Source of the DNA: a virus
Strand: one strand, 5' to 3'
Length of the DNA: 64,000 nucleotides
IMG/VR virus record: IMGVR_UViG_3300042894_002769
Location: 1 to 64,000 of that record
The position numbers and the translations under genes are program-made. Positions 1 to 54,257 of this stretch are shown here, piece after piece (position 1 is the first letter of the stretch; every line of letters starts with the position of its first letter). The notes below the pieces were generated by a model. It was not told where the DNA came from. It made no database searches and was given only the letters and a program-made list of their open reading frames with translations.

Positions 1-1722
1 ACCTAGTGTTACACGCGGTAACTCATTAAAAACATATTCAATATCTATAATATCACATCGTTTTTTAAAAAACGATAATAATCTGTCAGTTACAGATTGC
101 ATTGCTGTCTGCGATATTAACAAACTCTCAAACTGAACTCGAAGTGCTTGTGGGTGACGCGCTTTGACATTCAAATCAGCGGATTCTTGGACTAAGCTAT
201 CTTGCGCTACAGTAGCTTTCCACGCAGCAGGTGTCGCACCGAGAACATCAGATTGTACTGTATAATTTTTAGCATAGTGAGCCAATACCGAATAGTACGG
301 CAATCCATTTTCAGCAACACCATTTGAACTTCTTGTCACACTGCTACCAATAACTCGATAAAAATTTAAAGTTAAATCAGGTGTAGTGGACGGCTCTTGA
401 AAAAGAGCAGCTGTGACTTGGTTGACATTATATGTACTGTTATCTGCTAATGAGTCACCAAACCACCAGTAAGCACCACATGATTTACAAATATTATCAA
501 GGACTGCTCTGATGGTTATGTCTTTGTCAATGTACAAACCAATTGAACCGACTGTATTTAACTTCGTTACCGATGTCGCACTTGTTGTCACAGTGTAGGT
601 GCTGGTCAACGTAACAGCTGAATCATAACCGTCGGCTGTGATAATTCCGATTGGGATTTCCCCAAATGGGTACTCACTATCAATAGCCGGAGTTATGCGA
701 ATGTTACCTTGGTATGAGCCAAATGTTCCTGCTGGCGGTGCGGTATTATTAAACTCAGTCAATGAGTTGTAAGTAATACCTCTGTCTATTTGTGTACCGC
801 TATCGTAAACAGCATTTATCGTCATAGCGGTGCTTACCGACAATGAATATTTATGTGTCACGTTATCTGTTATTACAGGTTGTTCATTGATAACTGATTG
901 AGGTGTTGAGAATGTGATACTGTCACAAACCTTTTTAAATACATCACCAGCAAGACTGACTGTATCGGTAGCATTGCAGGTTATTTGTTGTACTGCCATC
1001 GTGCCTAATCTGAAGTAACCTTGGAATCGGTCAAAAGTTCCAGCAGCAGGATTAGTGGCTACTAAATTTGCAAGTGATGTGTGCGTCGTACCTAATGTTA
1101 TTGCGACACCTTTATCGTAAACGCTAGTCACAGTTGTTGTGGTCAAATCACTAACTTGATAAATACCAAGTGTCGCATAACATAATACTGGCGTGACATT
1201 AAGCACTGTTCCATATACTCTAGGTTTAACATTTCCTTTGATGTCAGAAGTTAAACCTTCTGTCGCACCTGTGCCTAAATAGCGTGTAACGGCTAACGGC
1301 AAATCTAACGATTCGGATAACGACTTTAGCGTCAATTGTAAATCATTTCCTGATTGATACATTCTTGTCACAATACCTTTAAACCATGTTGTGACAACAC
1401 CTGATGGCGATACTAATTGTAATGTACATTCACGACCATCAAATGCGTAATCGATTAGGTAATTTAACTTACCGTCAATATTGGTCAAAATCATCTCACC
1501 AATGGACGGTTGGTTCATAGCTTTGATGATACCACCATCGTTCCCTGAAATGACCACACGAGCAGGCTGACGCATTCTAGGTTGGTAATATCGACCTGTC
1601 GTTGCGTCTTTGTAGCCTTTATCGCTGAAATATAACATCACGGGGTTATTGGAAGCATCTAGCGCATTGATAGTTGCTATCCAATCCCCTTGTAACTGAC
1701 TAACCCCAAATTGTTGTGTCAT
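1..1722 (-). CDS. Tail protein downstream of tape measure (distal tail/tail-tip type); 3' end runs off the window
   Basis: Not in the ORF track. Open frame from ATG at 1722 (ATGA overlap with the TMP stop) to position 1: MTQQFGVSQLQGDWIATINALDASNNPVMLYFSDKGY...YLGTGATEGLTSDIKGNVKPRVYGTVLNVTPVL...; position and KPRVYG motif typical of tail proteins following a TMP. Confidence 0.75.
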   Translation of the reverse strand, partial: MTQQFGVSQLQGDWIATINALDASNNPVMLYFSDKGYKDATTGRYYQPRMRQPARVVISGNDGGIIKAMNQPSIGEMILTNIDGKLNYLIDYAFDGRECTLQLVSPSGVVTTWFKGIVTRMYQSGNDLQLTLKSLSESLDLPLAVTRYLGTGATEGLTSDIKGNVKPRVYGTVLNVTPVLCYATLGIYQVSDLTTTTVTSVYDKGVAITLGTTHTSLANLVATNPAAGTFDRFQGYFRLGTMAVQQITCNATDTVSLAGDVFKKVCDSITFSTPQSVINEQPVITDNVTHKYSLSVSTAMTINAVYDSGTQIDRGITYNSLTEFNNTAPPAGTFGSYQGNIRITPAIDSEYPFGEIPIGIITADGYDSAVTLTSTYTVTTSATSVTKLNTVGSIGLYIDKDITIRAVLDNICKSCGAYWWFGDSLADNSTYNVNQVTAALFQEPSTTPDLTLNFYRVIGSSVTRSSNGVAENGLPYYSVLAHYAKNYTVQSDVLGATPAAWKATVAQDSLVQESADLNVKARHPQALRVQFESLLISQTAMQSVTDRLLSFFKKRCDIIDIEYVFNELPRVTLG

Positions 1723-4700
1723 GCGTAAGCCGCTTCCTTAGATGTTTGTTTGATTGATTCAAGTGACATATTTTGTGAATGTGCCTGTTCAATTAATTGT
1801 TTGAAACCTTCTTGAAGAATATCATTTTGAGCTTTCAATATTTTATTCTGAAGTTTCATTTCTACAATTTCTTCTTCACATTTTTTCTCATACGAATCGT
1901 TATTTGCAGCTTGAGTTTTAACTACGGCTCTCACACCAAGACCAGAACTTGTTTGGGTCAATGGCATGATAGCTTCAGAACCTGCTTCGCCCATCATACC
2001 GATGTTAAAGGTAGTTGGTTTCGATACAATACCGTTAGTGAATGCACCACCGTCAGCAAACATTCGCATCGTACCACCGCCCATATTGTATCCCGTCAAC
2101 GTATAATAATTTTGAGCTGTGGACTTAGCAGTTTTTAATGCTTCATTGTAATAACCAAGTGCTTTTTTGTATTCATCAGTAGCAGAAGTTTTCTTAGACC
2201 CTTGCTTAGAACCAGTTTCATACGCTGATGTATTCACCATATCGATTTCTCTTTCTAAATCTTGATAAGGTGTAATTTCCATATCGATTTGTTTATCATG
2301 TGTGGCATTGTAACCAAGTACCCAACTTAAATTTTTATTGTAAGTGCTATTTGGGTCATTGAACACATTATACATTTTAGCACCAATATCAATAGCTGAT
2401 TTTTCAGTTGTTTTATAAGCACCAGTATCTTGCCACTTTTGAACATCACTTGCTTTTGAAACTGACGATAAGTAATCCTCGATACCCATATTACTTAGAC
2501 CGATATAGTTTTTCTTATTACGAGTTTCATTTTTAGCTGGAATGTAGGCTTCAATTTTGGCATTGCCTGTTGAGAATAAATCAATAGCATTTTGAACTTC
2601 GCCAGCTTTTGTAAGCATTGAATCAAAACCTGTAATCATGTTCAACACTTCCGTGACAGCAGTTTTAATTGCTGTAGTTAACGCATCAATAGTCGATGTG
2701 CTAATAGCAGGTATTTGGATATTGAATACAATTTTATCTGCTGCCATGTCTTTGACATTTTCAACTTTACCAAGAGCTTCATTGGATAAATTATCAATGT
2801 TGACAGCTAGTCCAACTTTGATATTTTTAATCGCTTTTGTTAAATTTGCAATTTCAGTATTCAAATCAGAACTTGCGCCAGATTTAACTTGTAAGCCAAC
2901 ATCGGCATAAAGGTCATTTATGTCAGAAACCTCTTTAGCAAGGTCAGCTTCAGAACTTGACGATACGTCGAAGTTCTCAATCGTTGCATTGACGCTTGCA
3001 GATAAATCACCAAATCGTTTCAACTTGGCATTAAGCGCAGCCACATTCGCGTCACTTGGATTTAAGACGACGTTGTTAATATCTGCTTGAATGCCAGTCA
3101 ATGCTAATTTCAAACTACTTATCGCAGCTGTTTTTGATTCAGGTGATATTTTAGCCGTAGCCACAGCTTCAACAGAGCTAAACGCTCTTTCTAATGAATC
3201 GATAGCTATATTCTGACTGTCAGCATTGATACTACTTTCAACAAGTGATTTAACTGTGCCAAAGGTACTTGTCATTTCTTTTGATGCCGCTAATTTTGTC
3301 TTAGGGTCAACATTAGAAGTAATCAATACATCAACAGCGCTGAATGCTTTTTCAAGCGCATGGAGAGCCTTAGCTTGGCTTTCAGGTGCAATTTCAACTG
3401 TAATCAAGTCAGTCATTTTTCCAAATGCTGTTTTTAATTCTGATACCACCGATGCTTTAGCACCATCATCCAAATCGCTTATGATAGTAGCTTTAACAGC
3501 GCTAAATCCACGTTCCAATGCAATTAACGCTGCGTCTTGTGTTTTTTCATTTATGTCAGGATTTACTGATGCTATCACACTTGAGAACGCACTTGTTAAT
3601 GTGCTGAATGTTGATTTAATTGTAGCTGGACTTGCTTTCGAATTGATAGTAGCTTCAATCGAGCCAAATGCAGTGTCAATTGCTTTTTCAGCTTTTGCTT
3701 GCAACACTGGGTTAACCATAGGTGCAATATCAGCTGTGATTGTTTTGAATGCTACTTTTAATGTATTACTAGCTTCAGTTAAAGCACTGCCATTTAGATT
3801 CGCATTCACTATTGCAGGAATCGCTGCAAAAGCTTTATTGAGTCTAGTCAAAACATCAGCTTTTTTAGATTCACTCAATGTACTTTCGATAGTTGCTTGA
3901 ATATGGTCAAAGGCTGAGTGCATAGTACGCACAACTTCAGACTGTGATGCTGTTGACAATGTTGTGAATACTTTAGAATCAATCACAGCAAAAGTTTTTG
4001 TCAAACTATCTCTTAATTTTGTAGTAGTTGCTGGATTATCGGCAATAGTGATTCTTCCGATAAACGCACTGAATCTTTCACGGAGTGTTACCATCATTTC
4101 AACTAAACTTGAACCGCTTGCGGTAACAGGTACTCTATATGAACCTTGTGCAAGAAAGTCTTTAATACTTTGAGAAACACTACGCAATGAACTATCGGTA
4201 ACATTTAATCCAGTTATCTTAGCGCTCAAACCTGTCAATTTATCGACACTTTGTTGTAAACGTGCAATTAAATCTTTGTCATTTGGATTCACTTTTAAAT
4301 CTTTAACAATACCTAAGACTTCAGCTTGCAATGTATCAAATGTATCTAAATCAGCTTGTAATTGAGCAATATTTTCAGGAGTTGGTGTTGCTCTCACATT
4401 CTTGATTTCAAAGCGTAATGCTGAGAATGCTGTGGTCAACGCATTTAAAGTTTCTTCTTGTTTAGTAGTATCAATCCCAACACTAACTATGGCATCAATC
4501 GTTGTAACAAGACCTGTATCAGAACCAATAGCTTGAATAAATTTATTTAAGAATGCCGCATCACTAGCTGATGCACCTTCTACCATTTTTGTTGTTTCCA
4601 GCATTACGGATGCTTTTGCATCAACTGCCAATTTACTTTGAGTCACAGAACCTAAATTAGCTATCGATGCTGCTAAGTTATCAATAACTTTTGTAGTCGC

Positions 4701-7700
4701 ATCTTCAATACCAGCAAATGTAGGTTTAGTATAAATGCCTACTTTAATCAATTTTAACTCAGCAAGCATGGCTTGTTGAACATCGAGCGCTTCAGGTAAA
4801 GAAGTCACCTTATCGATAACTTGCTGTTGTAAATCAACACCTGCTTTACTAGAGCCATAGAAGTTTTTAATTGCTCCTAAGTACGCATCAGCAACACTTG
4901 TGATTTTAGATTGTGCTATTTCTTGGTCAGCAGTTGATATAGGATTTGTGATACGCAACATTGTTTTTGAATATTGCATAGCCGCTGCATCCAACTGTGA
5001 CTTAGTTGAGCCAAGTGATGTGATTTTAAGACCTGTCGCCCAATCAGATAATGATTTCTTAAACGTAGTCGCAGTATCATTTGCCGCTTTTGATGCGTTA
5101 TCCATAGCATTTTTTAAATCTGATGCTGCACCCATTAAGGTAACTAATGTTGCATCGAGTGGGTTATTACGGAATGCTTTAGTTGCTTCATCGAGTGTTT
5201 TGAATGTAGTTGATTTCAAGATAGTATCAACGCGAGCTTGCGCTACGTCAATTTTCATTTGAGCATATTCGCTAGATGTCATTGCATATTTCTTAGCTTT
5301 ATCAACAGCAGTAGCGGCTTTATCGATACCACCTAGCGCATCAACAAAGGCTTGTGCCCGCGCTCCAAAATCATCCTTGCCTGCAAAAATATTACTAAGT
5401 TTTTGGCTCGCGTTGATAAACATTTCAAAGACAAGACCCATTGAATTTTGAACTTCTTGGGTTGCTTTTTGTAATTGCAGTGCTTTATCGGCATCATACG
5501 CTAATTGTGCTTTTTGAATATCTTTATTGGCAGAAGCAATACCCGCTTTATCTTTATTCTGAGTTGCAACAATCAATGCGTTATTGGCGGCATCAAGCGC
5601 TTTCTTAGTATCAGTCGTGTATTTATCAGCAACCGCATTGATAGTAGTCAACGCATAAGTTAAATCACCTGTACCTATCACACCATAGTCTTGAGCTGTT
5701 CCAGCAACTGACATACCACCTTGTTTAAATGCGGCTATTAAGTCAGGTAACGATGAGCGTGAAATTTCTTTGTTAGCAGCATCTTTACCCATTAATTTTT
5801 GAGTTGTTAAAAACGCATTTGTTGTATTATCGATTTTTTGCATCAAATCAGTCTGCGCTTTACTAACCACATCAGTTGGTGAATATTTACCAGTTATGTC
5901 AAGAAGATTTCTGTTTCTATACTCAGCGGTAAATGCTGATGCCAATTGTTTCATACCCGCAACATTAGCCGCATACGCATCTTTGTCAGCTGACGTATAG
6001 GTCATCACCCAAGGCTGATTTACAAATTCTTTTGGTAATGTTTTTAATGCAGCAGTGACAGCTTTCACACTTCCGTAGTTTAAAGTTTCAATAGTTGTCA
6101 ATTGCTTTTCAGTCAACCTTGGTAAAGTATCAAAGAATTTTTGGAATAATGGTAAATTACTTTCAACTGGGTTTAAGTTTGTAGTATCACGGACGTATGA
6201 CTTATTACCATAAACATCGTTTTTACCATAAGTTAAAATACCTTTAGTTGTATCCATACCCAATTTATCAACAGTTGTTGGGTATTTTGTCAAACTTGCT
6301 GGCGCTTCAGTGATACCGCCTGCTTGTAGTTTATCGTAAATTTTATTAATTTCAGTACCACTTCTCACAAATATGTTATGCGCAACATCCGCAAGCGAAC
6401 TTGTGTATTGCAGTGCTTGCGCAATTGACATTTTATATGCGTTAACAATAGTATTTACAATACCTGCTGTTTGCGAAATATCTTGTTGAGATGTTGTCGA
6501 TTTGCCAGTTGTTGTCGCATTAGCAGCATCACCAATAACAGCTGTATTTATTTTCTTCTTGGCAAGAATATCCATCACAATGCCAAGTTTTATAAACTGC
6601 TCGTTAATGGCAGACAAGCCGACTGTCGAATCACTAATGGCTTTAAATGTTTCATCCGCCATTTGCTGAACAGTCTTTTTACTTTTGACCATATCACCAA
6701 GTCTTTTTTGAATAAACTCTAAAACACCGATAGGTGATTCAGTTGCCATTTTTTGTAGAATGGTGGTTGTTTCAATTGCTTGGGTTTTAGTATTTGTAAT
6801 CTGTTTACTTTCAGTTAAAGCTAGTATCACAGATGTTGTATATTCTTTTGGTAAATTTTTAATAAATACAGATAGCCAGCCGCCAACTTGTCTACCAGCT
6901 TCAGTGTTCGTTTTCTGCAAATTAGTCACAACACTATTGAAAAGCCAGTTGGTCATTTTCATAGCATCAAAGCTACTTGATTCGACACGTTTCATCGTAG
7001 CGCCAATATTTCTAAAGATACCTCTTGTATAATCTTCACTATTACCAAGCGCTTTATCAACAGTGCCGACAACATTACCAATCGACTGTAACGTGTTACC
7101 AACTCGCGTAACAAATTCTTTTTCTTGCTTTGTGATGGCGTAATCCAAACCTTGCGTTCTGCCATAATAAACATCACCCATATTTGTTGACATCGCAAGA
7201 ACACGATTTTCTTTGCTAACTTTATTAACAGTCGGTGCTTGAACGTCTGCGTATTTAGATTTGCCATTTTCACCAATGGCATTCATACCTTTAGATATGA
7301 TAATACCGAAATCAATTTTCTTTTGATGTTCAAAAAGACTACCAATTAATTTACCAATCATATCGCCAATAATGATACCAAGTAGCGTGCCGATTCCCGG
7401 AAGTAAAATTGTCCCAATAATTGCGCCAGCCATCATTCCTACCATACGAGAAATATTCATAGGCGTGAAACCATCTTTGATGACACTCATAGTCGTACTA
7501 ATCACAGATGCTGCTGCGGCAATTCCTAGTAATACAGGATTCATCGACGCAATAGTTGACCCCATTGTTGCAATACTTGCTGCAAATGCGACATTACCGA
7601 GAGCATCGATGACACCAATTGTTTTACCCATAACGCCATCTAACTTATCCCAACTAGTTGCCAAAGAGTACGCTTCAATACCTAGTGACGCGACAAATCC

Positions 7701-10700
7701 GATTGTTGAAAGTAATGAGCTAGATAAACCTTTTGATGCTTTTGCAGCACCATCAATAGCTGTTTTAGTAGATTCAAATGTAGGTGTGATTGCATTACCG
7801 ATAGCATTGCTTAAATTAGTTGACGCATTTGTACCTAATGCTGCACCAGTTCCAGCAACACCCGCAGCCGATGTTCCCGTTGTAATAGCATTAAAAGTAG
7901 CAGGCGTTATCGCACTGCTAACTGCCGTATTTAAACTCGCAATAGCAGCGGACGATGCTTGTATTGATAGATTGCTTGCCACAGCAGCACCACTTGTCAA
8001 ACCTAAGTAGTCGGTCACAGCTGCGTAGCCTGCTTTCACAGTTTCCGTGATTGGCGCAAGGCTTTCTTTAAATGCTGTGTACGCTGATTTAATCGCGCTC
8101 ATTGTTTCAGGGAAATATGCTTGCAATGTGTCGCCAGCAAATTTAGAAATTGCATCAGATTGTTTATACATCAAACTGAAACCTTTTCCTAAGCCATCGC
8201 GCAAATCTTTATTAAACTGAGTTGCTTCCTTACTGTAAATTAAAAAGTCCATATTTGCCACAGACATATCAACTGCTTGCATTGAACTTGCATCAGCAGG
8301 TATTCCATTTGGATAGTCTGAAGTCATTGATGTTTGTGACGTATTTAGTTTAGGCTCTGCTTTAGACAGTCCCATATAAGTACCGATAGCGACAGCTCCA
8401 GCAAGTGCTGTCAAACTACCGCCCATTGAGAATCCTTCGCCACTCAATCCTGAAAATAATTGTTTAACAATACCTTGAGCAATGAAATCCATAGCTGCAC
8501 CAATCATTCGATTGAGCATTGATTTGAACATGTCACCAAGTGCTTGTGTCGCAGTTTTACCTTGTACCAACATGTCGGTAAACATAGTCGATAATGATTG
8601 CGACAAGTTATCAACACCAAGACCTGCTTTTTCGATAAAGCCAAGCATTTCTTTTTGGTCTTGTAACTGAATAATATTTTGACCAGCTTTTGAATCAGCT
8701 GTCACACCTTTTGTTTTTAGAAGGTTTGCTGTTTCTACAGCTTTAGCTCCTTTTAATAAAAGTTCTAGTTGTTTCTCATTAGCAAGTGTCAAATCATCTT
8801 CAACAGTTGCTTGTGATTTTAAAAGTCCCATCAATGCAGATTGTTCAGATGAAATTTTAGTTTTTAGCAACGCTACTTTTTCATTGGCATCGAGAATATC
8901 TCTTTCGTACTCAAGTAATATTCTTTCATTCTCAGGACGTTTTAAATCTCTAATGTTTTTTTGTTGCTGAACCATGTCGGCTAACAATGCTTCTTGTTCA
9001 CTTAATGATGACGTATCTGAAAGCATCATTCCTTGAATTGGTGCAATGGCAAAACCACCTTTGTTTTTAGCTAACGCTGCGAGTTCAACTTCATTTTGTA
9101 ATTTTGCTTTAGCATTGATTAAAACCATTTGCGCTTCATAGGTACGTTTTTCCGCAGCTAGTTTGGCATCAAGACCCTTTATGTATCGGTCACTGGCTTC
9201 TTTTTCTATTGACTCTTGGTCATTAATTAAACTTCTTAATGTCGCTAGGCGTTTTTTGCCTAATTCAAAATCAGCTTGTTCTTCTTTGGTTTTAATAATA
9301 CCCGCTTTTGACGATAGCTCAGTCATCAAGGTGTATTCTTCAGTCAGCAATTTAGCAAGTGCTTCAGATTGACCTGAGAAGTCAGGTACAAGTGCTTCTT
9401 TAGTAACTTTCTTATATTCACCAGCAAGACTTTGAATTTGAGCGATTACTTCAGGTGCAAGTTTACCTTCTTTGCCAGCGGCATATTGTTGGTAGTATTG
9501 TAATACTTGCGGAATGTAATTTTTAGTTTCAGCTGGCACACGCGATAAATCATTACCGACTTTTGCAAAATTCCCAGTACCGAAATTGTAACCAGCAAGT
9601 GCTTTTTTAACATCACCGCCAAAAGTATTTAATACTTCAGATAATATTTTTACACCAGCACGAATATTCTGTTCGATATTTTTAGGGTCGGTAATACCAT
9701 ACGCATCAAAATTAGATGGCTTAATTTGCATTAAACCAGTTGCACCAGATTTATTATGAGCGTTTACTTTCCATTGTGATTCTTGCTCAATCACAGCTTT
9801 AACTAAATTAGTGTCAACTTTAAACTTAGCCGCATAAGTATCAATATACCCAAGAACCTCTTTTGTCGTTGTTGCAACGCGAGGTGTCACAGTTTTAGCA
9901 TCGATTTCTTGAACAGCTAAATCATAAGATTCGACCATTGCTTTTTTGAAACCGATATTATATTTTTTGTACATCGATTCCATCATTTTATTTTGTGATT
10001 CGACGTACTGTAAATTTGATTCTTGAAGTCTTGGTAGAGTTTCTTTGAAGTTTTCTAGTTCTCTTTGTAGCTGTGCGCTTTTTTCTTCCATTTTTTGTAA
10101 GTCAAAGGCTTTGCCTGCATCAGCAGCAACGCTTGCCATACCTTCCTGTAACGCAACTCCGCGCATGTAATTAGAGCTATTTTTAGAACCAAGGTCATTT
10201 AAATTACCTTCTCTAACTATTCTCAAAATGTCAGCTACTTTAAAATTACTTTCACCAGTAGTTGTGCGAATTTTACTTTCATATTTTTTAGCAAATTCAT
10301 CCTGTGCTTTTGAAATAGCTTCTTCACGAGCAGGCATTGCCTTTTGATACAACTTGTAAGTTTCTTCTTCGATTGCTAAAATTTTTGCATTTGTTGCAAC
10401 TTGTTGGTTAAGAATTCTTTGACCTTCAAGTAATTTTTGTTCGTAAGTACCTTGATATTTATTTAACTGGTCAAGCAAACCGATTGCTTCAAGTTGTTTT
10501 TCAACTTTCGCCATTTCATTTTTGGCATCAACGTCAGCTTTGTTTTTATCATATTCACTTTTTAATCCAGCTACATTATTGTTAGTTTCACCAGACATTG
10601 CTCTAGCCATTAGTTGTGGCATTGAGTGAAAACCAAACCCATAATCGCTAAAAACACTTTTACTTTTTTGCATTTCATTAAATTTTTCTTGAACAAAAGT

Positions 10701-13700
10701 GATTGTGTTTTTCAATCCTTCAAATTCAGCAGAAATTAATTTAAATGTTTTAACAATTGGATTTTCGGATTCATCAAATGTTTTCCAAAGCGCTTCCCAA
10801 CTTGCATTAATACCTGTGATAGCATCGGTGTTAGTATTTTTAAATGTATAAATAGCAGTACCAAGACTTGCAACTAATCCAATAATCATCATTATCGGAT
10901 TACGCGATAACGCCATATTCCAAAGATTTACAAGTAGTGTGCTGCCTATCACAGCAGTTGAAAATACACCAATGCCAGCACCAAGTGATATTACAACAGA
11001 ACCGAGTGTGTCAAAATTATCAGCAAGTTTTCTAGCTAACTCGGCAAAGTCTTTACTGACACCACTAGATTCATTTAGTTTACCTAGATATCTAGTAAAC
11101 GCATTTTCGATAATTGCAAAACTTTGACCAAAGGTTACTTCAACATCTTTTGATAAAGCATTCAACTCATCTTTGGCACGAAGTAATGCTTCGGCATAAA
11201 CAGCTGAGTACATTTTTCCTTGAAGCATCAATTCACGACCTTGTGGCAAACTCATCACAAGACCTTTATGTGCTTCAACATATTTTTCTAAAGCCGCACT
11301 TCCGCGTTCAAGTCCTTCTTCGTTCATCCCTTTAAGCGCTGCTTTTGCTTCGTTGTAATGCTTGATTGCCACTTGCATCACAATTGGGATACCATCGTTG
11401 ATAGACTTAAATTCTTGACCACGAACAACAACACCACCAAGTGCTTGCTCTAACTGCAATAATGCACCACGAGCATTTTGCGTATTTAAACCCATAATCA
11501 TCAAGGCTTGACCAAGTTCTTTGGTCAAAGTCATTGCCTTATCGTTACCCATACCCATTGCTTCAACAGCTCGTGACATACGACTAAACAATGTCGCAGT
11601 ACCTTCAAGCGATGTGCGGGTATCTTGTGATATTTTAAATACTTCATCGACTTTCATTTCGACAAGCATTTTTCGCTGTTCGGCATTTAATATTTCGGTT
11701 GCGCCAGTCACACGCTCTAAGCCATCTACCATTTGGTGCATAGCAACTTTTACCATTGATACAAAGTGCATCCAATGGTCAGCATATTCTAATAATTGTC
11801 TTGCTGATAAATAAACACCTAGTTGCATCAATACATTAGTCACCATACCCATTGTATTGTGTACCATACCCATTGCTGTATTTAAACCAGAATGTGCTTT
11901 GGTGTATTCTTGTAGTATTGAAATATCTTCACGCGATGTCACAAAGGCTTTACCTTGTGATAGCATTTGACCACGTTCTTCACGCTGTCTTTTCATATCA
12001 GCGTAATGCGCATTGTCTTGTATTTGTTGGATTTCAGCTTCTTTGATAATGTCTGCTTTTCTAAGTTCAAACATTTCTTTTTCGTTAGCAACACGATGTG
12101 CCATTGCAGCTTCAAAGCCGCGTGCTTCAGCTTCAGCTGCTAGTTGAATATTTCGTAGGATTGATTCTGTGACAATTTTATTTTCATTGATTTGAGCGTT
12201 GCCTATTTTTACAGCAGCATCAATTTTATAGCGTTCTTCAATAGTAGTGGATTCGTTAATCATTGACAGCATTCTTGATATTGAACCTTGTTGCAATGTT
12301 TCAATTCTATGAATGGCATTTTCACGAGTAGCAATGTCTTTTGCTGTCACAGCTGCATTTAATTTTTCTTGTTGCGACGCCATCATTTGCTGATACTTTT
12401 CAATCTTAGCAAGTTCGACAATAGTTTGGTCAGCAATTGCGCCTGTTGCCATTTGTGGAGGTATCGCAACGTAATTCTGTGGCTCTTTATATTTCGCGTA
12501 ACCTTGAGCCGTCATTCCTGCATTTTGCATAAGGAACTCGGCTTCTGACATTGATTTACGAGCTTGGAACAACTCATTGTACATTTTAGTCATTTCTGAC
12601 ACTTTGGTACGTTCTGCGTTTAATTCAGCATTCCGATAAAATTCTTGTAACGCTGCTTTTTCAGCAAGCATTCGTTTTTCGTGTTCAACAAGTGTGTTGT
12701 CAACAGCAAACAACGCATCATACATACGAGTCATTTCGGAAACACGCATTCTTTCAGCATTCAAATCAGCTTGTCGATTAAAGTTACGCAAAGATTCTTC
12801 TTCACTTAATCTACGCTGTTCCATTTCAAGTAACATTGAATTCAATTCACTACGTTCTTTACGAACATTTGCTAATCGTTCTGCATCTTTTTGAGCAGCT
12901 GATTGTTTAGCAGATTGTTCTGCTAATAATTCCTTTTCTTGCGCATCAAGTAGCTTTTCAAATTCAGCAATACGCTCACCCATCATAAACTTATCACGAT
13001 TAGCGTCAGCCTGACGATAAAAATCCCGTAACTCATTTTGTTTTGTACCAAGTCTTTCTTCAGATTCCATCACAAGTTTGAAGCGTTCATCAAGTGCTTT
13101 CTTCTCAGCTTCTTTTAAAACAGCTGCTCCATTAGGAACAAGGTTCTGACTTGTAGTACCACCAGTAGTACCAGTGCTTTGCAAACCACCGTAGGAATAA
13201 TCACCACGTTTAAATACTTCAGATTGGTCAGGATATGCTGCCATAGATAAACCAGCTGGCATACCGTTGTATGTTCCACCAATCGCACGTCCACCAGACC
13301 CAGTTACACCTGCGCCCAAATTAACAAACGATTTTTCTTTTTGCTCTAGTACCGCAAGTGCTTCAGTACGTTTATTTGTTTCAGCTACTATAACTGCTGT
13401 TTTTTCTTGCTCGACTGATTTAACAATATCAACAGTTTCTCTACGCGCAGTGGCTTCTGCTTTCAAGCCGCTTTCAATTGCTTTAGTTGCTTCGTTTGTT
13501 GAATTGATTATCACATCAAGCGACAACTGTGCTGAAGATGCAATTTCTTTATTTGTGGCTTTTGCATTATCTGTGATAGCTTTTGAAGACTTAGTTAATG
13601 CTGAATCTAATTGACTTTGCATTGACTCAATATTACGCAATGTTTCTGTCACGGAAGATTGAATATTGGCAAAATTGGATGTTATTTGTTTGTAGGCTTT

Positions 13701-14162
13701 ATCGACATCCGTGAGCATTCTTGTCACAGAATCAGTGGTTGCTGCATTTAATGTGGCGCGTAATTGGTCAGCTGCGGTTGTTGCGGCTTGCTGTGTTTTT
13801 TCATTTACCTTTTCAACACTTGCGGAGTCAAGTGTTAATTCGACAGGAACTGAGTGCTTACTAATAGCTCGTAATGACGCTTCAACTTGTTCATCGCTTG
13901 CGATGATGTTAACGCCAACATTAACAGTTTTATTTGAAAGTTTTGTAGACAGTTCAGTTTCAGTCACATTCAGATTGACATTCTTCTGAATTGTACCTTC
14001 GCTTAATGTTTTTATTTGTTCTTTGGCAGCAGTCGTGTCAGCTTGTACTTTGACAGACGGTTTTTGTTTATTGATATGCTCATTAAGTTCAGCTGCGTGT
14101 TTAATCGCAGCTTCACTATCTAAATCAACATTAATCTTTACACCAATCTCACCATCTATCAT
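1719..14162 (-). CDS. Giant tape measure protein (4147 aa) with tape-measure domain and lytic transglycosylase (SLT) domain
   Basis: Follows the tail chaperones. Tape-measure motif (ISQDTRTSLEGTATLFSRM...LLQLEQALGGVVVRGQEFKSI); SLT motif (AVIEQESQW...GATGLMQI...ALAGYNFG) at ~9500-9850; C-terminal FADGGAF...GEAGSEAIMPL motif. Confidence 0.93.
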   Translation of the reverse strand: MIDGEIGVKINVDLDSEAAIKHAAELNEHINKQKPSVKVQADTTAAKEQIKTLSEGTIQKNVNLNVTETELSTKLSNKTVNVGVNIIASDEQVEASLRAISKHSVPVELTLDSASVEKVNEKTQQAATTAADQLRATLNAATTDSVTRMLTDVDKAYKQITSNFANIQSSVTETLRNIESMQSQLDSALTKSSKAITDNAKATNKEIASSAQLSLDVIINSTNEATKAIESGLKAEATARRETVDIVKSVEQEKTAVIVAETNKRTEALAVLEQKEKSFVNLGAGVTGSGGRAIGGTYNGMPAGLSMAAYPDQSEVFKRGDYSYGGLQSTGTTGGTTSQNLVPNGAAVLKEAEKKALDERFKLVMESEERLGTKQNELRDFYRQADANRDKFMMGERIAEFEKLLDAQEKELLAEQSAKQSAAQKDAERLANVRKERSELNSMLLEMEQRRLSEEESLRNFNRQADLNAERMRVSEMTRMYDALFAVDNTLVEHEKRMLAEKAALQEFYRNAELNAERTKVSEMTKMYNELFQARKSMSEAEFLMQNAGMTAQGYAKYKEPQNYVAIPPQMATGAIADQTIVELAKIEKYQQMMASQQEKLNAAVTAKDIATRENAIHRIETLQQGSISRMLSMINESTTIEERYKIDAAVKIGNAQINENKIVTESILRNIQLAAEAEARGFEAAMAHRVANEKEMFELRKADIIKEAEIQQIQDNAHYADMKRQREERGQMLSQGKAFVTSREDISILQEYTKAHSGLNTAMGMVHNTMGMVTNVLMQLGVYLSARQLLEYADHWMHFVSMVKVAMHQMVDGLERVTGATEILNAEQRKMLVEMKVDEVFKISQDTRTSLEGTATLFSRMSRAVEAMGMGNDKAMTLTKELGQALMIMGLNTQNARGALLQLEQALGGVVVRGQEFKSINDGIPIVMQVAIKHYNEAKAALKGMNEEGLERGSAALEKYVEAHKGLVMSLPQGRELMLQGKMYSAVYAEALLRAKDELNALSKDVEVTFGQSFAIIENAFTRYLGKLNESSGVSKDFAELARKLADNFDTLGSVVISLGAGIGVFSTAVIGSTLLVNLWNMALSRNPIMMIIGLVASLGTAIYTFKNTNTDAITGINASWEALWKTFDESENPIVKTFKLISAEFEGLKNTITFVQEKFNEMQKSKSVFSDYGFGFHSMPQLMARAMSGETNNNVAGLKSEYDKNKADVDAKNEMAKVEKQLEAIGLLDQLNKYQGTYEQKLLEGQRILNQQVATNAKILAIEEETYKLYQKAMPAREEAISKAQDEFAKKYESKIRTTTGESNFKVADILRIVREGNLNDLGSKNSSNYMRGVALQEGMASVAADAGKAFDLQKMEEKSAQLQRELENFKETLPRLQESNLQYVESQNKMMESMYKKYNIGFKKAMVESYDLAVQEIDAKTVTPRVATTTKEVLGYIDTYAAKFKVDTNLVKAVIEQESQWKVNAHNKSGATGLMQIKPSNFDAYGITDPKNIEQNIRAGVKILSEVLNTFGGDVKKALAGYNFGTGNFAKVGNDLSRVPAETKNYIPQVLQYYQQYAAGKEGKLAPEVIAQIQSLAGEYKKVTKEALVPDFSGQSEALAKLLTEEYTLMTELSSKAGIIKTKEEQADFELGKKRLATLRSLINDQESIEKEASDRYIKGLDAKLAAEKRTYEAQMVLINAKAKLQNEVELAALAKNKGGFAIAPIQGMMLSDTSSLSEQEALLADMVQQQKNIRDLKRPENERILLEYERDILDANEKVALLKTKISSEQSALMGLLKSQATVEDDLTLANEKQLELLLKGAKAVETANLLKTKGVTADSKAGQNIIQLQDQKEMLGFIEKAGLGVDNLSQSLSTMFTDMLVQGKTATQALGDMFKSMLNRMIGAAMDFIAQGIVKQLFSGLSGEGFSMGGSLTALAGAVAIGTYMGLSKAEPKLNTSQTSMTSDYPNGIPADASSMQAVDMSVANMDFLIYSKEATQFNKDLRDGLGKGFSLMYKQSDAISKFAGDTLQAYFPETMSAIKSAYTAFKESLAPITETVKAGYAAVTDYLGLTSGAAVASNLSIQASSAAIASLNTAVSSAITPATFNAITTGTSAAGVAGTGAALGTNASTNLSNAIGNAITPTFESTKTAIDGAAKASKGLSSSLLSTIGFVASLGIEAYSLATSWDKLDGVMGKTIGVIDALGNVAFAASIATMGSTIASMNPVLLGIAAAASVISTTMSVIKDGFTPMNISRMVGMMAGAIIGTILLPGIGTLLGIIIGDMIGKLIGSLFEHQKKIDFGIIISKGMNAIGENGKSKYADVQAPTVNKVSKENRVLAMSTNMGDVYYGRTQGLDYAITKQEKEFVTRVGNTLQSIGNVVGTVDKALGNSEDYTRGIFRNIGATMKRVESSSFDAMKMTNWLFNSVVTNLQKTNTEAGRQVGGWLSVFIKNLPKEYTTSVILALTESKQITNTKTQAIETTTILQKMATESPIGVLEFIQKRLGDMVKSKKTVQQMADETFKAISDSTVGLSAINEQFIKLGIVMDILAKKKINTAVIGDAANATTTGKSTTSQQDISQTAGIVNTIVNAYKMSIAQALQYTSSLADVAHNIFVRSGTEINKIYDKLQAGGITEAPASLTKYPTTVDKLGMDTTKGILTYGKNDVYGNKSYVRDTTNLNPVESNLPLFQKFFDTLPRLTEKQLTTIETLNYGSVKAVTAALKTLPKEFVNQPWVMTYTSADKDAYAANVAGMKQLASAFTAEYRNRNLLDITGKYSPTDVVSKAQTDLMQKIDNTTNAFLTTQKLMGKDAANKEISRSSLPDLIAAFKQGGMSVAGTAQDYGVIGTGDLTYALTTINAVADKYTTDTKKALDAANNALIVATQNKDKAGIASANKDIQKAQLAYDADKALQLQKATQEVQNSMGLVFEMFINASQKLSNIFAGKDDFGARAQAFVDALGGIDKAATAVDKAKKYAMTSSEYAQMKIDVAQARVDTILKSTTFKTLDEATKAFRNNPLDATLVTLMGAASDLKNAMDNASKAANDTATTFKKSLSDWATGLKITSLGSTKSQLDAAAMQYSKTMLRITNPISTADQEIAQSKITSVADAYLGAIKNFYGSSKAGVDLQQQVIDKVTSLPEALDVQQAMLAELKLIKVGIYTKPTFAGIEDATTKVIDNLAASIANLGSVTQSKLAVDAKASVMLETTKMVEGASASDAAFLNKFIQAIGSDTGLVTTIDAIVSVGIDTTKQEETLNALTTAFSALRFEIKNVRATPTPENIAQLQADLDTFDTLQAEVLGIVKDLKVNPNDKDLIARLQQSVDKLTGLSAKITGLNVTDSSLRSVSQSIKDFLAQGSYRVPVTASGSSLVEMMVTLRERFSAFIGRITIADNPATTTKLRDSLTKTFAVIDSKVFTTLSTASQSEVVRTMHSAFDHIQATIESTLSESKKADVLTRLNKAFAAIPAIVNANLNGSALTEASNTLKVAFKTITADIAPMVNPVLQAKAEKAIDTAFGSIEATINSKASPATIKSTFSTLTSAFSSVIASVNPDINEKTQDAALIALERGFSAVKATIISDLDDGAKASVVSELKTAFGKMTDLITVEIAPESQAKALHALEKAFSAVDVLITSNVDPKTKLAASKEMTSTFGTVKSLVESSINADSQNIAIDSLERAFSSVEAVATAKISPESKTAAISSLKLALTGIQADINNVVLNPSDANVAALNAKLKRFGDLSASVNATIENFDVSSSSEADLAKEVSDINDLYADVGLQVKSGASSDLNTEIANLTKAIKNIKVGLAVNIDNLSNEALGKVENVKDMAADKIVFNIQIPAISTSTIDALTTAIKTAVTEVLNMITGFDSMLTKAGEVQNAIDLFSTGNAKIEAYIPAKNETRNKKNYIGLSNMGIEDYLSSVSKASDVQKWQDTGAYKTTEKSAIDIGAKMYNVFNDPNSTYNKNLSWVLGYNATHDKQIDMEITPYQDLEREIDMVNTSAYETGSKQGSKKTSATDEYKKALGYYNEALKTAKSTAQNYYTLTGYNMGGGTMRMFADGGAFTNGIVSKPTTFNIGMMGEAGSEAIMPLTQTSSGLGVRAVVKTQAANNDSYEKKCEEEIVEMKLQNKILKAQNDILQEGFKQLIEQAHSQNMSLESIKQTSKEAAYA

Positions 14163-28939: not shown

Positions 28940-28998
28940 AAAAAAAAAAACCGAAGCAGTGTGACGTACTTCGGTTAAAGGAGTTCCACTAATGGAAT
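28940..28998 (-). ncRNA. Candidate ~60-nt sRNA with exposed anti-Shine-Dalgarno segment
   Basis: Promoter TTGCTA-18-TATAGT with extended TG (-10 at 29005-29010); transcript hairpin UUCCA-UUAG-UGGAA, single-stranded CUCCUUU, terminator hairpin CCGAAG...CUUCGG plus U12. Confidence 0.55.
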
Positions 28999-29010
28999 GA
29001 CAATACTATA

Positions 29011-29250
29011 TCACATTATGGAATCACTTAGCAAAGGCATGTACATTTTGCTGAAATATTCTTTTGAAATCCATGTGACATAATCGATATTTTCATTAAT
29101 TTCAGTAACAACTAAATAACCATCTTCATTACTTTCTACCTCATCAGTTCCATCTGAGATGTAAATATCGCCACCAGTTATTGACAATTCATATTCAAAC
29201 CATGTCATCGGTTTGGCTTTTACTTTTGCAAAACTCACATAACTTTGCAT
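29011..29250 (-). CDS. Stand-alone homologue of the N-terminal domain of the Tad2-fusion protein
   Basis: Likely start MQSYV at 29250 (RBS AAGGAG); KVKAKPMT...DGYLVV...YVTWISKEYFSKMY aligns by eye with KVINAVEMT...AGYLVE...YVTWSPKEVFSKAY of 31559..32017. Confidence 0.65.
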   Translation of the reverse strand: MQSYVSFAKVKAKPMTWFEYELSITGGDIYISDGTDEVESNEDGYLVVTEINENIDYVTWISKEYFSKMYMPLLSDSIM

Positions 29251-31408: not shown

Positions 31409-31471
31409 TGGTCAGTTATGAGGGACTTGCACCCCCGACCTCAGCGCTCTACCAAACTGAGCTAATAACTG
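31409..31471 (-). ncRNA. tRNA-like RNA lacking the anticodon arm
   Basis: CAGTTAT-TA-GCTC AGTTTGGTA GAGC-G-CTG-AGGTC-GGGGG TGCAAGT CCCTC-ATAACTG-A-CCA: intact acceptor stem, D arm, T arm and CCA; only 3 nt where the 17-nt anticodon arm belongs. Confidence 0.85.
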
Positions 31472-32017: not shown

Positions 32018-32724
32018 TTGTTGTAACGTAGTAAAATATCACGACAAATGCCTGACCGAACAACGTCATCGATGGTGAAATAGCAAAATTGAATGTTATT
32101 CACATTTTGTAATCGATTCATAGCATCTTTAAGTCCTGATTTACAACTTATATCACATTGATTCACATCACCATCGATAATTATCTTACAGCCTTCACCA
32201 ACACGAGTTAGAAACATGCGCATTTGTTCAACTGATGTATTTTGTGCTTCATCAAGTATCACAACTGAATCGGTGAATGTCACACCTCGCATATAGGCTA
32301 ATGGTTTGAACTCAATCATTTTCTTATTCAGATAATAATCCACCACAGGCTTACCCAAACGTCGTGATAATATCTCTATCATTGGGAGCATCCAAGGCTC
32401 AGTCTTATCTGATAATTCACCTTTCAAATAACCAAGGCTTTCACCAGCTTCAACTATTGGACGACAAATGATTATTTTGGTTATGTTTTTTAATTGCAAT
32501 TGTTGCGCAGCATAACTTAGCGCAATATAACTTTTTCCAGTACCAGCGCAACCTACGCCAAAAGTAATAATATTGCCATAAATTGCATTTAAATATTGTT
32601 GTTGTGCATCGTTTAAAGCAGTGGGTGCTTTGACATGATATGTCTGCTCAACCTGATACGATACAGATTCTTCTAATTTAGCTTTACGTTTATCCCTTCT
32701 TTTTGCTCTTTTATCAAATTCCAT
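32014..32724 (-). CDS. phoH: PhoH-family ATPase
   Basis: GCAGTGKS, RPIVEAGESLGYLKG, LAYMRGVTF, ILDEAQN, GDVNQCD, DVVRS. Confidence 0.95.
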   Translation of the reverse strand: MEFDKRAKRRDKRKAKLEESVSYQVEQTYHVKAPTALNDAQQQYLNAIYGNIITFGVGCAGTGKSYIALSYAAQQLQLKNITKIIICRPIVEAGESLGYLKGELSDKTEPWMLPMIEILSRRLGKPVVDYYLNKKMIEFKPLAYMRGVTFTDSVVILDEAQNTSVEQMRMFLTRVGEGCKIIIDGDVNQCDISCKSGLKDAMNRLQNVNNIQFCYFTIDDVVRSGICRDILLRYNN

Positions 32725-32748
32725 AAAGTCCCTAGTTAGTTTAGAAGT

Positions 32749-32894
32749 TGATAGTTGCTGGTACTGAACTCCGGCTTGTGGTGCTGTTTAACACACGCTT
32801 ACTCTTTCGAGATAGTTACCCCTACAGTAACACTCCACTAGGCTTTTGGGCTTCTACCCCGTTCCATAGCATATCAGCCTATGCTTTAACTATC
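32749..32894 (-). ncRNA. Structured RNA with closing helix and loop-loop pseudoknot upstream of phoH
   Basis: Closing helix UGAUAGUU/AACUAUCA; hairpin GCAUA-GGCUGA-UAUGC whose loop can pair with UCAGU in the loop of the 3' hairpin GCCGG-AGUUCAGUA-CCAGC. Confidence 0.6.
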
Positions 32895-32983
32895 ACGCAT
32901 GCCAACTGGTATGCAATTAGCATGCGTGATAATACTTAGCACATTGCGGAAAACGTATATATCCATTAACCGCATGTGCAATT

Positions 32984-33090
32984 TTGTCATTTACCCAATG
33001 GGAATTGAACCCATAATTTATCATAAATATCGTGTCGCGCTTGATAAGATATGATTTGGTTTACCTAGTTTAACCTATAGGTTTATCACA
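32984..33090 (-). ncRNA. tRNA-like RNA with enlarged anticodon arm and no CCA
   Basis: ACCTA-TA-GGTT AAACTAGGTA AACC ... ATGGG TTCAATT CCCAT-TGGGT: D and T arms clear; ~36-nt bulged arm in place of the anticodon arm. Confidence 0.65.
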
Positions 33091-33097
33091 AGGTTTT

Positions 33098-33127
33098 ATC
33101 TTACTGCTGGTTTAGGGCGCTTGTCAA
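33098..33127 (-). promoter_or_regulatory. Sigma70-like promoter driving the tRNA-like/ncRNA/phoH transcript
   Basis: TTGACA-18-TAAGAT. Confidence 0.65.
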
Positions 33128-33282
33128 TACTGTTTGCGATTAGTTGCTAAAATACCTGTCACAATGATATGAACAAGTCCTAGCGTACTGATGCACAAAA
33201 ATAAAATATTGCGAAAATCGTTATAATTTTGTGACCAATTATGCGTGTGGTGATTTTCATGTGGAATTCTCACAAGGAGTTT

Positions 33283-33468
33283 AAAAAGAAAAACCCCGCA
33301 TCACACGGGCAGCGATACGGGGTTTGTCCTTATTTTTATGCCGATTCTGCATTAAGAGTCGTGGAGGATATGATGAGGTATCGGCATTAATAATATTGCC
33401 GTCTTTCCGAGCTGTCATTTCACCACAAAAGGAGAGTATAAATGTCACATGAACGTCACAAATAATAC
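33283..33468 (-). ncRNA. Candidate ~185-nt sRNA with two anti-RBS segments
   Basis: Own promoter and a 14-bp terminator stem whose G-U pairs work only on the minus strand; contains CAUUUAUACUCUCCUUUUGUGGUG and CAUCAUAUCCUCCAC. Confidence 0.55.
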
Positions 33469-33474
33469 AGCCTT

Positions 33475-33503
33475 ATGGTAAATAGTAATTGCCCGTATGT
33501 CAA
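33475..33503 (-). promoter_or_regulatory. Sigma70-like promoter
   Basis: TTGACA-17-TACCAT. Confidence 0.65.
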
Positions 33504-33507
33504 TAAA

Positions 33508-34284
33508 TTATTCGATAGGTTCAGGCGCAGGCTCAAATGATTCGCCTTCCGCTACATCTGATAATTCTTTGGCAAATGAAGATATTTTTTCCATCACAGC
33601 TGCTACCGCAGGGTCGCTTAGATGGTTTGCAATGGGTTCGTATTTGATGCCAAAGTGACTGATAACTTCTTCCATTAGCGCGTCATCTAAGACTTGATTG
33701 TCCTGCATTGGAATTCTGATGTCAGAAGCCATGTAAGGCAATTGAATTTCTTGGCATGAAGCGACATAGGCAATTTGGTCATTTTTCACATAGCCAAGGA
33801 TACCGCCATTTGTGTTACCTGTTGTGACATCGTAATGTAGTATCGCATGGACATCGTAGAATTTAATCACAGCAGTGTCGGTTGGGTAAGTTTGGACTTT
33901 GAGAATTGACTTTTTACGATTACTCACACGGTAAAGCGCATCTTCGGATACTTCGTGGGTCTTATTGACCAAATTGTTGAATACGGGATAGAAGTAATTA
34001 TTAGCATCTTCTAAGACATTGCTCACAGAGAATAACTCACTGAAGTCGTCATCGTCGTCTTCAATTGGGGTCAGGGGTTGTTCCCATAGGAGCGAGCTGA
34101 CCATACCACCTACTGCTGCGGCTGAGTGTTGGTTTAAGTTAGCTTTTTCGTCTTGAGCGAAAGCAGCTTGAAGGTCAGTGATGAATTTTTCAACGAGTGG
34201 GATTGCAACCGAGATTTCAAAGATACCGCGTGATTCTAGGTCGTCTTGCAAGCGTTGTAGTTCAAATGCGTGGTGTGTTGTCAT
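33508..34284 (-). CDS. Hypothetical acidic protein
   Basis: 258-aa ORF with upstream promoter TTGCTT-17-TAAAAT (~34321-34349). Confidence 0.7.
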   Translation of the reverse strand: MTTHHAFELQRLQDDLESRGIFEISVAIPLVEKFITDLQAAFAQDEKANLNQHSAAAVGGMVSSLLWEQPLTPIEDDDDDFSELFSVSNVLEDANNYFYPVFNNLVNKTHEVSEDALYRVSNRKKSILKVQTYPTDTAVIKFYDVHAILHYDVTTGNTNGGILGYVKNDQIAYVASCQEIQLPYMASDIRIPMQDNQVLDDALMEEVISHFGIKYEPIANHLSDPAVAAVMEKISSFAKELSDVAEGESFEPAPEPIE

Positions 34285-35418: not shown

Positions 35419-35726
35419 AATATCGCGCTCCCGTAATCGATGGCGTAAAGTGGGCGCTCTGTCGCGCGTTCTTTGATAATAATATTGTATCCATCATCAT
35501 CAATGCTACATCTTCCAGCGCTTGCGCTTGTTAAGTATCCTGACTCCCTAAAATGTTTCAATAGTTGGCGCGGTGTCCAGTCTAAACAATCAGCGCTAAT
35601 TGTTCCGATTGTGTGCCAATTATTCCAGTCGTAGCCGTTGCGGTTATTTCCCCACGCATCAATTGATAATATTTTCAAATCATCAGGCGCGGGCGTTGGT
35701 GTTGGTGTCGTGTTAATTAATAGCAT
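35415..35726 (-). CDS. Early hypothetical protein
   Basis: Likely start MLLINT at 35726 (RBS AGGAGG); LSIDAWGN...GYDWNNW motif. Confidence 0.7.
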   Translation of the reverse strand: MLLINTTPTPTPAPDDLKILSIDAWGNNRNGYDWNNWHTIGTISADCLDWTPRQLLKHFRESGYLTSASAGRCSIDDDGYNIIIKERATERPLYAIDYGSAIL

Positions 35727-50583: not shown

Positions 50584-50683
50584 CACCACAAAAGGTAAAA
50601 CCATGCGATTAAATAAAACAATGCAAGAAGTCTTCCTGTTGCAACTAACATTATCACAGACTTAAAACAATTGGGGTGGAAAA

Positions 50684-54224: not shown

Positions 54225-54257
54225 GACACTTTATTTACACCACACGAGGATTTACAA

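Follow-up and report, generated by a model that had tools for sequence, protein, structure and literature searches.

A putative small RNA gene joining an anti-Shine–Dalgarno arm to a widespread phage RNA hairpin upstream of phoH in an uncultivated freshwater phage

Between positions 33283 and 33503 of the phage record IMGVR_UViG_3300042894_002769, a promoter and a terminator on the minus strand enclose a short stretch in which ribosome-binding sites appear to be written in antisense. This raises the question of whether the unit encodes a small RNA that pairs with phage messages, or whether the stretch serves another purpose. The record comprises 79,225 bp with direct terminal repeats and a GC content of 37.8%; the window referred to here is its first 64 kb, the stretch of DNA that was analysed. 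The large terminase shares ~54% identity with its counterparts in Seuratvirus-like and Nonagvirus-like siphophages, and the host is likely a freshwater proteobacterium of low GC that uses SD sequences. A single ORF of 4147 aa occupies positions 1719-14162 (-) of the window.

The RNA locus resides within a 780-nt stretch without credible genes (32725-33507), flanked by a 258-aa ORF of no known family and by a PhoH-like gene. Beyond the latter lie a Tad2-like gene and then a tRNA-Met. The 258-aa ORF, the island, phoH, the Tad2-like gene and the tRNA are all on the minus strand, and the RNA locus is the first unit of this RNA island upstream of phoH. Among GenBank phages, a blastn search set for distant similarity found no match to 32700-33560 and tblastn found none to the 258-aa neighbour; a metagenome scan for GGTGAAATGACAGC..GGAAAGAC also gave no match. 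The matches listed for the stretch with the RNA locus are DNA contigs, mostly with lake-water or freshwater metagenome labels, and no RNA data sets are among them. The RNA itself was found only in near-identical strains, represented by the 4.6-kb viral contig L002 and by contigs from sequencing runs.

The initial annotation described a promoter TTGACA-17-TACCAT and a terminator specific to the minus strand, delimiting an RNA of ~185 nt. A consensus scan confirms this arrangement and flags no terminator on the plus strand of the locus. Transcription from the promoter is predicted to start near 33468, so that promoter and terminator delimit a minus-strand RNA of ~155-185 nt, the parts of which are collected in Table 1. 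The variable leader contains, in antisense, the spacer and ATG of segment 1, one of two segments in which complementarity to start sites had been noted, and also a plus-strand mini-ORF of 7 codons. The sequence of the hairpin in the middle of the unit is UGACAGC-UCG-GAAAGA-CGG-CA. The second promoter-like site that overlaps it is probably a by-product of the hairpin motif, because many copies of this motif in high-GC phages have no -10-like sequence after them. The island has a separate promoter further downstream (33127..33098, -).

Table 1. Predicted features of the RNA unit and its immediate surroundings (window coordinates)
Feature	Position	Strand	Sequence or basis
Sigma-70-like promoter P1	33475..33503	-	TTGACA-17-TACCAT; consensus scan, 10/12 matches
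P1 hexamers	-35 TTGACA 33503-33498; -10 TACCAT 33480-33475	-	17-nt spacer
Variable 5' leader of the primary transcript	33439..33468	-	changes in strain X10
Pyrimidine-rich anti-SD arm UACUCUCCUUUUGU, core of segment 1	33425..33438	-	sequence, homology
GGUGAAA, 5' extension of the pan-phage hairpin motif	33418..33424	-	viral contig scan
Pan-phage hairpin UGACAGC-stem-GGAAAGAC-stem-GCA	33397..33417	-	4-bp stem and one bulged U
Second promoter-like site ATGACA-17-TATTAT	33390..33418	-	consensus scan; overlaps hairpin
Long hairpin with large apical loop carrying segment 2	33339..33387	-	fold
Segment 2, CAUCAUAUCCUCCAC, anti-AUG and anti-SD	33375-33361	-	apical loop of long hairpin
A-rich single-stranded linker AUAAAAAUAAGGAC before terminator	33326..33338	-	sequence, fold
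Intrinsic terminator, then U-tract	33283..33325	-	14-bp stem (33325..33291), 7 GC pairs
Invariant 44 nt after terminator	33239..33282	-	strain comparison

The RNA (186 nt) folds at -52.3 kcal/mol, as opposed to -38.7+-3.5 for shuffled sequences (z -3.9). In the unconstrained minimum-energy fold, segment 1 is paired with segment 2, and the conserved hairpin is populated at 21% in the free ensemble. In the fold with this hairpin enforced (-50.7 kcal/mol), the unpaired fraction is approximately half for the arm and 88% for segment 2, which occupies the apical loop of the long hairpin (33387-33339). A hallmark of Hfq-type sRNAs is present, namely a rho-independent terminator with a U-tail and an adjacent A/U-rich single strand. 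A gathering-threshold Rfam scan of the whole window returned one tRNA only, and cmscan of 32600-33700 found no family at threshold for the RNA. The sub-threshold hits rdlD (20.8 bits vs a threshold of 50), ohsC (18.3 vs 50) and Thr_leader (26 vs 55) all fall on the terminator region and were rejected. The ORFs that overlap the RNA have no match in Pfam or PHROG. The sequence UCACCACA at 33246-33253 (-), just past the terminator, is complementary over 8 bp to UGUGGUGA of segment 1; upon read-through, this pairing could bring the entire RNA into a single closed domain, or the sequence could serve as an internal decoy.

Comparison between strains suggests which part of the unit is constrained. 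L002 is identical over the RNA and carries indels on either side. One contig of the divergent strain X10 has 0 differences in 33239-33438 and 24 in 33439-33700 (262 nt), and another has 9 differences in 33088-33224 (137 nt); thus a divergence of 6-9% on both sides borders an invariant RNA body. The invariant block begins exactly at UACUCUCC (33438), includes the anti-SD arm and extends through the terminator and the 44 nt after it. These 44 nt carry a third anti-SD word, CUCCUU, and end at the breakpoint of a strain-specific 200-nt replacement. Both promoter hexamers are the same in X10, whereas the first 30 nt of the predicted transcript vary, with three substitutions (33439, 33441 and 33463) and one T inserted after 33454 that frameshifts the plus-strand mini-ORF. 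As the spacer and ATG vary and the mini-ORF is frameshifted, conservation does not extend to the plus-strand "start site" as such, whereas it does cover the anti-SD part. On these grounds of sequence, the locus is very likely a real, constrained non-coding RNA gene. A 26-codon minus-strand ORF past the terminator was set aside, as it is not conserved and has 17 codons in L002.

The strains also differ in larger blocks. The window, relative to L002 and to contigs of runs X7 and X10, is missing ~186 nt net at 33224/33239 (L002:981-1180). This deletion truncates a 62-aa ORF with two transmembrane segments that is intact in L002 (L002:1093-1278), and the 49-aa ORF at 33124-33273 of the window is its remnant. 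Conversely, L002:1655-2007 is an extra 353-nt module, absent from the window at ~32750-32778, which adds another GAAAGA hairpin, a perfect one, and repeats the framed structured RNA described below. Near-identical strains thus differ by the gain and loss of entire modules in the island.

The hairpin at the centre of the unit is a copy of an element that is spread widely among phages. The motif TGACAGC-N1-2-GGAAAGAC is present in at least 118 viral contigs. Among the 124 non-redundant copies listed, 90 have a perfect stem, formed by many different stem sequences, where ~0.9 would be expected; the covariation of the stem is confirmed. The loop is the hexamer GAAAGA in all copies listed. Elsewhere, the hairpin is located 3-9 nt before tRNA genes, 25-35 nt before starts or ahead of folded RNAs. 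The copy in the window phage is the only one in the 79-kb genome, matches the motif exactly save for its bulged U, and points the same way as the promoter, the terminator and every neighbouring gene, with the long hairpin following. The element has no Rfam entry, and a limited literature search found no paper on it. Use of the hairpin as a sigma-70 -35 element was considered and rejected, as tRNAs start 3-9 nt after it and there is no preference for T before TGACA. GGAAAGAC is not a common start-site block in the three genomes compared, and within the loci of "hairpin + terminator" mini-units nothing is complementary to the linkers.

In 25 viral contigs, representing at least eight sequence contexts, UGACAGC is preceded at a distance of 0-8 nt by the heptamer GGUGAAA, which also precedes it in 3 of the 124 copies of an unbiased sample, against 0.07 expected. 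Because of this recurrence, the GUGGUGAAA half of segment 1 is part of the hairpin motif and not an antisense seed. It is this half that matches CACCAC starts such as those of Sak4 and 50584. Anti-SD words are not enriched upstream of the hairpin in general (14 vs 12 of 124). The GGUGAAA contexts include temperate phages with GenBank relatives that infect enterobacteria. In Salmonella phage SPN3UB (L153, 2501-2588), GGUGAAA and the UGACAGC hairpin occur in an unannotated leader of 400 nt, between cI and the first early-left genes of this lambdoid phage, the place that nutL holds in lambda.

The initial annotation had gone further and proposed a multi-target trans-antisense RNA that would shut off early and middle genes of the phage, or host mRNAs, late in infection, both segments being complementary to start sites of the phage itself. 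Every match that it quoted was recovered in place: the plus-strand 24-mer of segment 1 (33421-33444) and TGGAGGATATGATG (33362-33375), CACCACAAAAGG again at 50584 ahead of a 20-codon ORF, CACCACACGAGGA... at 54238 ahead of the Sak4-like gene, TTTCACCAAGGAGA at 51452 and TGGAGATAATGATG at 46319. In the 79 kb, 17 plus-strand ATG sites follow a strong SD (a duplex with the anti-SD of -7 kcal/mol or better); two of these fall opposite the RNA, where ~0.05 would be expected in 184 nt. The composite CACCA[CA]-N0-6-SD occurs 14 times in the genome, as opposed to 2.9+-1.7 in shuffled genomes, and most copies besides the one opposite the RNA are real or plausible starts, among them those of Sak4, the genes at 37557, 37821 and 49890, and two 20-codon ORFs. 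A 12/12 match is estimated to arise ~0.2-1.7 times by chance.

Best-helix, duplex and cofold tests covered ~101-123 initiation regions of the window phage; full-length RNAduplex was discarded on account of unrealistically long duplexes. The ungapped helices formed by the RNA body with 101 initiation regions equal those of dinucleotide shuffles (minimum p 0.23), and the count of helices at or below -14 gives p 0.06 against such shuffles. For segment 1, p is 0.04-0.08 ungapped and 0.12 gapped against initiation regions, and 0.02-0.06 in comparison with genomic 31-mers. Segment 2 gives p 0.84 and stands at the 27-73% level of genomic 31-mers. The cofold energy difference, which includes intramolecular structure, gives p 0.16-0.9 when the arm is shuffled.

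The multi-target pairing claimed for the window phage is therefore not supported. The hybrid energies of the targets named, Sak4, 50584, 51452 and 46319, are no better than those of shuffled controls, an outcome set down beforehand as counting against the proposal. The CACCAC part of these targets would pair with GUGGUGAAA, a part of the pan-phage structural motif, and the spacer and AUG part of segment 1 varies between strains. Segment 2 does lie in a hairpin loop once the conserved hairpin forms, as had been described, but it has no target above chance. What stands of the trans-antisense proposal is a conserved non-coding RNA with anti-SD content, together with statistical support, in relatives, for pairing of the homologous arm with an initiation region.

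The arm itself points to other genes. Its complement, ACAAAAGGAG, has three copies in the genome: the one opposite the arm, and those in the initiation regions of the genes at 35726 (114 aa, no assigned family) and 29250 (79 aa, an N-terminal paralogue of the family of the Tad2-like gene). AAGGAG is found in 2 of 105 initiation regions, and both read ACAAAAGGAG, the exact 10-mer complement of the arm; in the form CUCCUUUUGU, the arm matches the only two AAGGAG-type start sites of the phage. The ACAA prefix of ACAAAAGGAG has a per-position frequency of 0.011 in upstream regions. The 10-bp helix is weak, with an arm energy test of p 0.32, and since it is short and AU-rich it is missed by energy tests. 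The match is only suggestive, and it would make these two genes better target candidates than those first named. The gene at 29250, one of the two, is followed at 28940-29034 (-) by a short unit that consists of an unpaired CUCCUUUAA stretch and a strong terminator.

Relatives with islands upstream of phoH provide a second view of the arm. In L003, L004 and L005, phoH is 68% identical to that of the window; L084 was found by motif scan and has the island in common with them. All four carry a non-coding island (0.8-1.2 kb) upstream of phoH. It starts right after the stop of the upstream gene with UACUCU-GUGUCCUCAG-UGUGGUGAAA, followed by an inserted hairpin of 31 nt and the GAAAGA hairpin, where the window counterpart reads UACUCU-CCUUU-UGUGGUGAAA-hairpin. 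The arm in these relatives is UACUCUGUGUCCUCAGUGU. We infer that it is homologous to the window arm from an identical 7-mer and 10-mer in the same order beside the same motif; a MAFFT alignment did not place the arm in a homologous position.

In the complete genome of a phage of this type (G001, 57.7 kb), the arm UCUGUGUCCUCAG is complementary at 13/13 positions to the SD and spacer of a gene for a 55-aa membrane protein, 6 kb downstream of the arm. The same 13/13 target is present in L003 and L004. The stacking energy of the G001 arm is -30, as opposed to -17+-2 for shuffles, and was reached by 0/250 and 0/600 shuffles (p<0.002); the gapped duplex gives p 0.01. The control with swapped arm is not clean, as the window arm gives p 0.07 against the initiation regions of G001. 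As arm and target are both identical among G001-type phages, no compensatory change is seen. GGACAC occurs in only six copies on both strands of G001. Three of these form the SD regions of the 55-aa gene, of phoH and of the gene for DNA polymerase, and two anti-copies lie in the RNA island, in the arm and in the hairpin loop GUGUCCUCAUAG. In G001 (L125-L127), all five copies of AGGACAC/GUGUCCU fall within 6 kb (36034, 37051, 37207, 37968 and 42011), and they are these three SD regions and two anti-copies. These complementarities are good evidence that such islands bear antisense copies of nearby start sites. The third island lineage, G005/L031, has no anti-initiation-region element in its island.

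The remainder of the island also contains structured RNA. The window phage, the G001 group and G005 all have a GAAAGA hairpin and a framed-RNA island directly upstream of phoH, while the gene on the other side differs; PhoH may be functionally linked to the island RNAs. The framed structured RNA lies just upstream of phoH at 32747-32896 (-) of the window, and in the relatives at L002:1913-2039, L003:4350-4476, L004:4418-4544, L005:4370-4515 and L084:8708-8834. Its closing helix of 8 bp (UGAUAGUU/AACUAUCA) is invariant, the stem of its 5' hairpin (loop AGGCUGAU) shows compensatory changes, and its 3' hairpin reads GCCGG/CCGGC. The core differs between phages. Double changes are seen in 5 of 19 predicted pairs, and the element has no Rfam match. 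Long-range pairing of GUGGUG with the CACCAC of the downstream structured RNA was rejected, because in the relatives this CACCAC is in a local hairpin with covarying stems. A tRNA-like element of 90 nt (32993-33082, -) scores 27.8 bits against an Rfam tRNA threshold of 29, is not called by ARAGORN and lies directly downstream of the promoter TTGACA-18-TAAGAT at 33127..33098 (-). Beside the tRNA-Met, L002:3315-3374 (window ~31409-31471) matches the Rfam tRNA model at 46 bits over only 60 nt; it is likewise uncalled by ARAGORN and is consistent with an anticodon-less tRNA.

The explanation that we prefer, tentatively and without calling it probable, is that of a c4-like RNA that acts against ribosome-binding sites through its arm. 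The locus would be an independent non-coding RNA gene, transcribed by the RNA polymerase of the host from near 33468 to the terminator near 33285, with the constrained part of the RNA starting at 33438. The RNA would consist of five parts: the anti-SD arm UACUCUCCUUUUGU, the GGUGAAA/UGACAGC/GAAAGA hairpin, the long hairpin displaying a second anti-SD/anti-AUG loop, the A-rich linker and the terminator. The arm would pair with the SD region of a few phage mRNAs and block initiation, as does the c4 RNA of P1/P7, the best candidate targets being the ACAAAAGGAG-type initiation regions at 35726 (114-aa gene) and 29250 (79-aa gene). The GAAAGA hairpin may be a structural or protein-binding handle, or a processing mark. 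Transcription of the unit, its pairing in vivo and the direction of regulation are what we infer from the DNA.

An unlikely alternative is that the unit is a cis-acting leader or attenuator, in which the promoter, a boxB-like GAAAGA hairpin and the terminator form a nut/put-like cassette, and the hairpin, alone or with a factor, sets the read-through of the polymerase into the island and phoH; the anti-SD words would then be incidental. The order of promoter (33503), hairpin (33417-33397) and terminator (33325-33291) mirrors pL-nutL-tL1, the extended motif of SPN3UB sits in a non-coding leader right after cI, and at least five copies of the motif elsewhere have a terminator 3-20 nt after them. 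The G001-type phages have no promoter before the island, and their next clear terminator-like hairpin is just before phoH. The RNA, however, has no boxA-like sequence, its loop is of 6 nt and is not a GNRA-like pentaloop, and motif copies right before each tRNA of an array are ill-suited to processive antitermination. Separate promoters downstream, e.g., 33127..33098, also speak against a read-through cassette, which in addition leaves the complementarity between arm and initiation regions in the relatives unexplained. It is also unlikely, to a similar degree, that the unit exists for the hairpin and is a structural, processing or protein-binding RNA without a base-pairing role. The hairpin would then mark or cap RNA units, or bind a factor, and the pyrimidine stretches would be structural or due to chance. 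This agrees with the hairpin being the one element with wide, covarying conservation and with its place, in many phages, at the head of genes, folded RNAs and tRNAs. The motif accounts for half of segment 1, the two segments pair together in the minimum-energy fold, and the energy tests are null. Since the regions upstream of the motif show no general excess of anti-SD words, the density of such words here and the G001 result would nonetheless need another explanation.

That the plus strand is the meaningful one, with micro-ORF starts (7 and 5 codons) or decayed relics of CACCAC-type gene starts and a coincidental RNA opposite, we regard as highly improbable. The sequence is a textbook member of the CACCA[CA]-SD-ATG start family, which heads two 20-codon ORFs, and few SDs of the genome are as strong as its two (-9.3 and -9.1). 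No promoter or terminator was found on that strand at the locus, however, and the neighbouring genes are all on the other. X10 frameshifts the 7-codon ORF and mutates the spacer while the anti-SD part is invariant, and the direction in which the pan-phage hairpin reads shows that the RNA is made from the minus strand. Open frames are also present on the minus strand, of 55 aa from GTG 33448 or 45 aa from ATG 33418, but a small protein is scarcely credible: neither frame has an SD, the upstream sequence being anti-SD, the frame crosses the terminator hairpin, the ATG belongs to the conserved UGACAGC motif, and Pfam and PHROG give no matches. A wider version of the preferred reading, in which the GAAAGA hairpin is the handle of a phage-wide RNA platform, is a long shot. 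The hairpin would be bound by a factor of the host or phage, with the sequence just 5' of the hairpin acting as a freely exchangeable guide arm that silences ribosome-binding sites. If true, hundreds of unrelated phages would carry one programmable device for translation control that is in no RNA catalogue, and the arm in the window phage group would silence chosen ribosome-binding sites of the phage or of its host.

To our knowledge, phage sRNAs that regulate genes of their own phage are known from only a handful of model phages. The locus and its relatives offer a testable case in uncultivated freshwater phages, with an anti-ribosome-site arm physically joined to a very widespread phage RNA hairpin. 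The new elements are the placement of this hairpin within an RNA delimited by promoter and terminator, its GGUGAAA extension, and the complementarity between arm and start sites in phages with phoH islands. If the arm acts, it would give the first functional handle on the hairpin, and regulatory wiring could be read from phage sequence through arm/start-site complementarity. If the arm is inert, the locus is one more example of the hairpin with clear boundaries, and can help in the search for what binds it.

Among known systems, lambda-type nut sites consist of boxA and a boxB hairpin (5-bp stem, GNRA-like pentaloop) and mediate N-dependent antitermination through an arginine-rich N-like protein. 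In the window RNA, too, a promoter is soon followed by a short GC-rich hairpin, its loop purine-rich and of GAAA type, and then by a terminator, and the SPN3UB motif occupies the pL leader. It differs in the hexamer GAAAGA of its loop, the fixed flanks UGACAGC/GCA and the stem of 4 bp plus a bulge, and in that the GAAAGA hairpin is found before individual tRNAs in lytic phages. For boxA (CGCTCTTA / TGCTCTTTA), a search with YGCTCTTWA allowing at most one mismatch gave no match inside 33283-33503. With the other GAAAGA hairpins the window copy has in common the flanks, the loop, the covarying stem of 4-5 bp and a position heading RNA units. Unlike them, it lies inside a small RNA delimited by promoter and terminator and not before a tRNA, has a bulged U, and is abutted by GGUGAAA and the anti-SD arm.

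The streptococcal csRNAs and the C-rich loops of S. aureus RNAIII and Rsa RNAs present CCUCC/CUCCU, sometimes with anti-AUG, and can cover many start sites. GcvB uses a GU-rich seed against CA-rich enhancers. The window RNA resembles the former in its anti-SD loops or arms and the latter in a GU-rich stretch opposite CA-rich sequence upstream of the SD, whereas it is phage-encoded and has no sequence relation to any of them.

C4 RNA is released from an operon transcript by RNase P. The c4 antisense RNA of phages P1 and P7 (immI operon), which has an Rfam family, C4, has been reviewed (PMC12197685). The window RNA departs from it in having its own promoter and terminator and a GAAAGA hairpin, and its candidate targets are 2-4 kb off on either side and not directly downstream. 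The Rfam C4 model has no match in 32600-33700 (cmscan, E up to 10). The window RNA would nonetheless be, like c4, a small RNA encoded by a phage. In c4, short exposed segments complementary to the ribosome-binding region of genes of the same phage block translation; the arm of the window RNA would act likewise, with an exact 10-nt match to two initiation regions but hybrid energies equal to those of shuffles, and the arm of the relatives has its 13/13 complementarity. In the G001-type phages, moreover, the island lies upstream of and in the same orientation as the presumed targets phoH, DNA polymerase and the 55-aa gene, just as c4 lies upstream of icd/ant.
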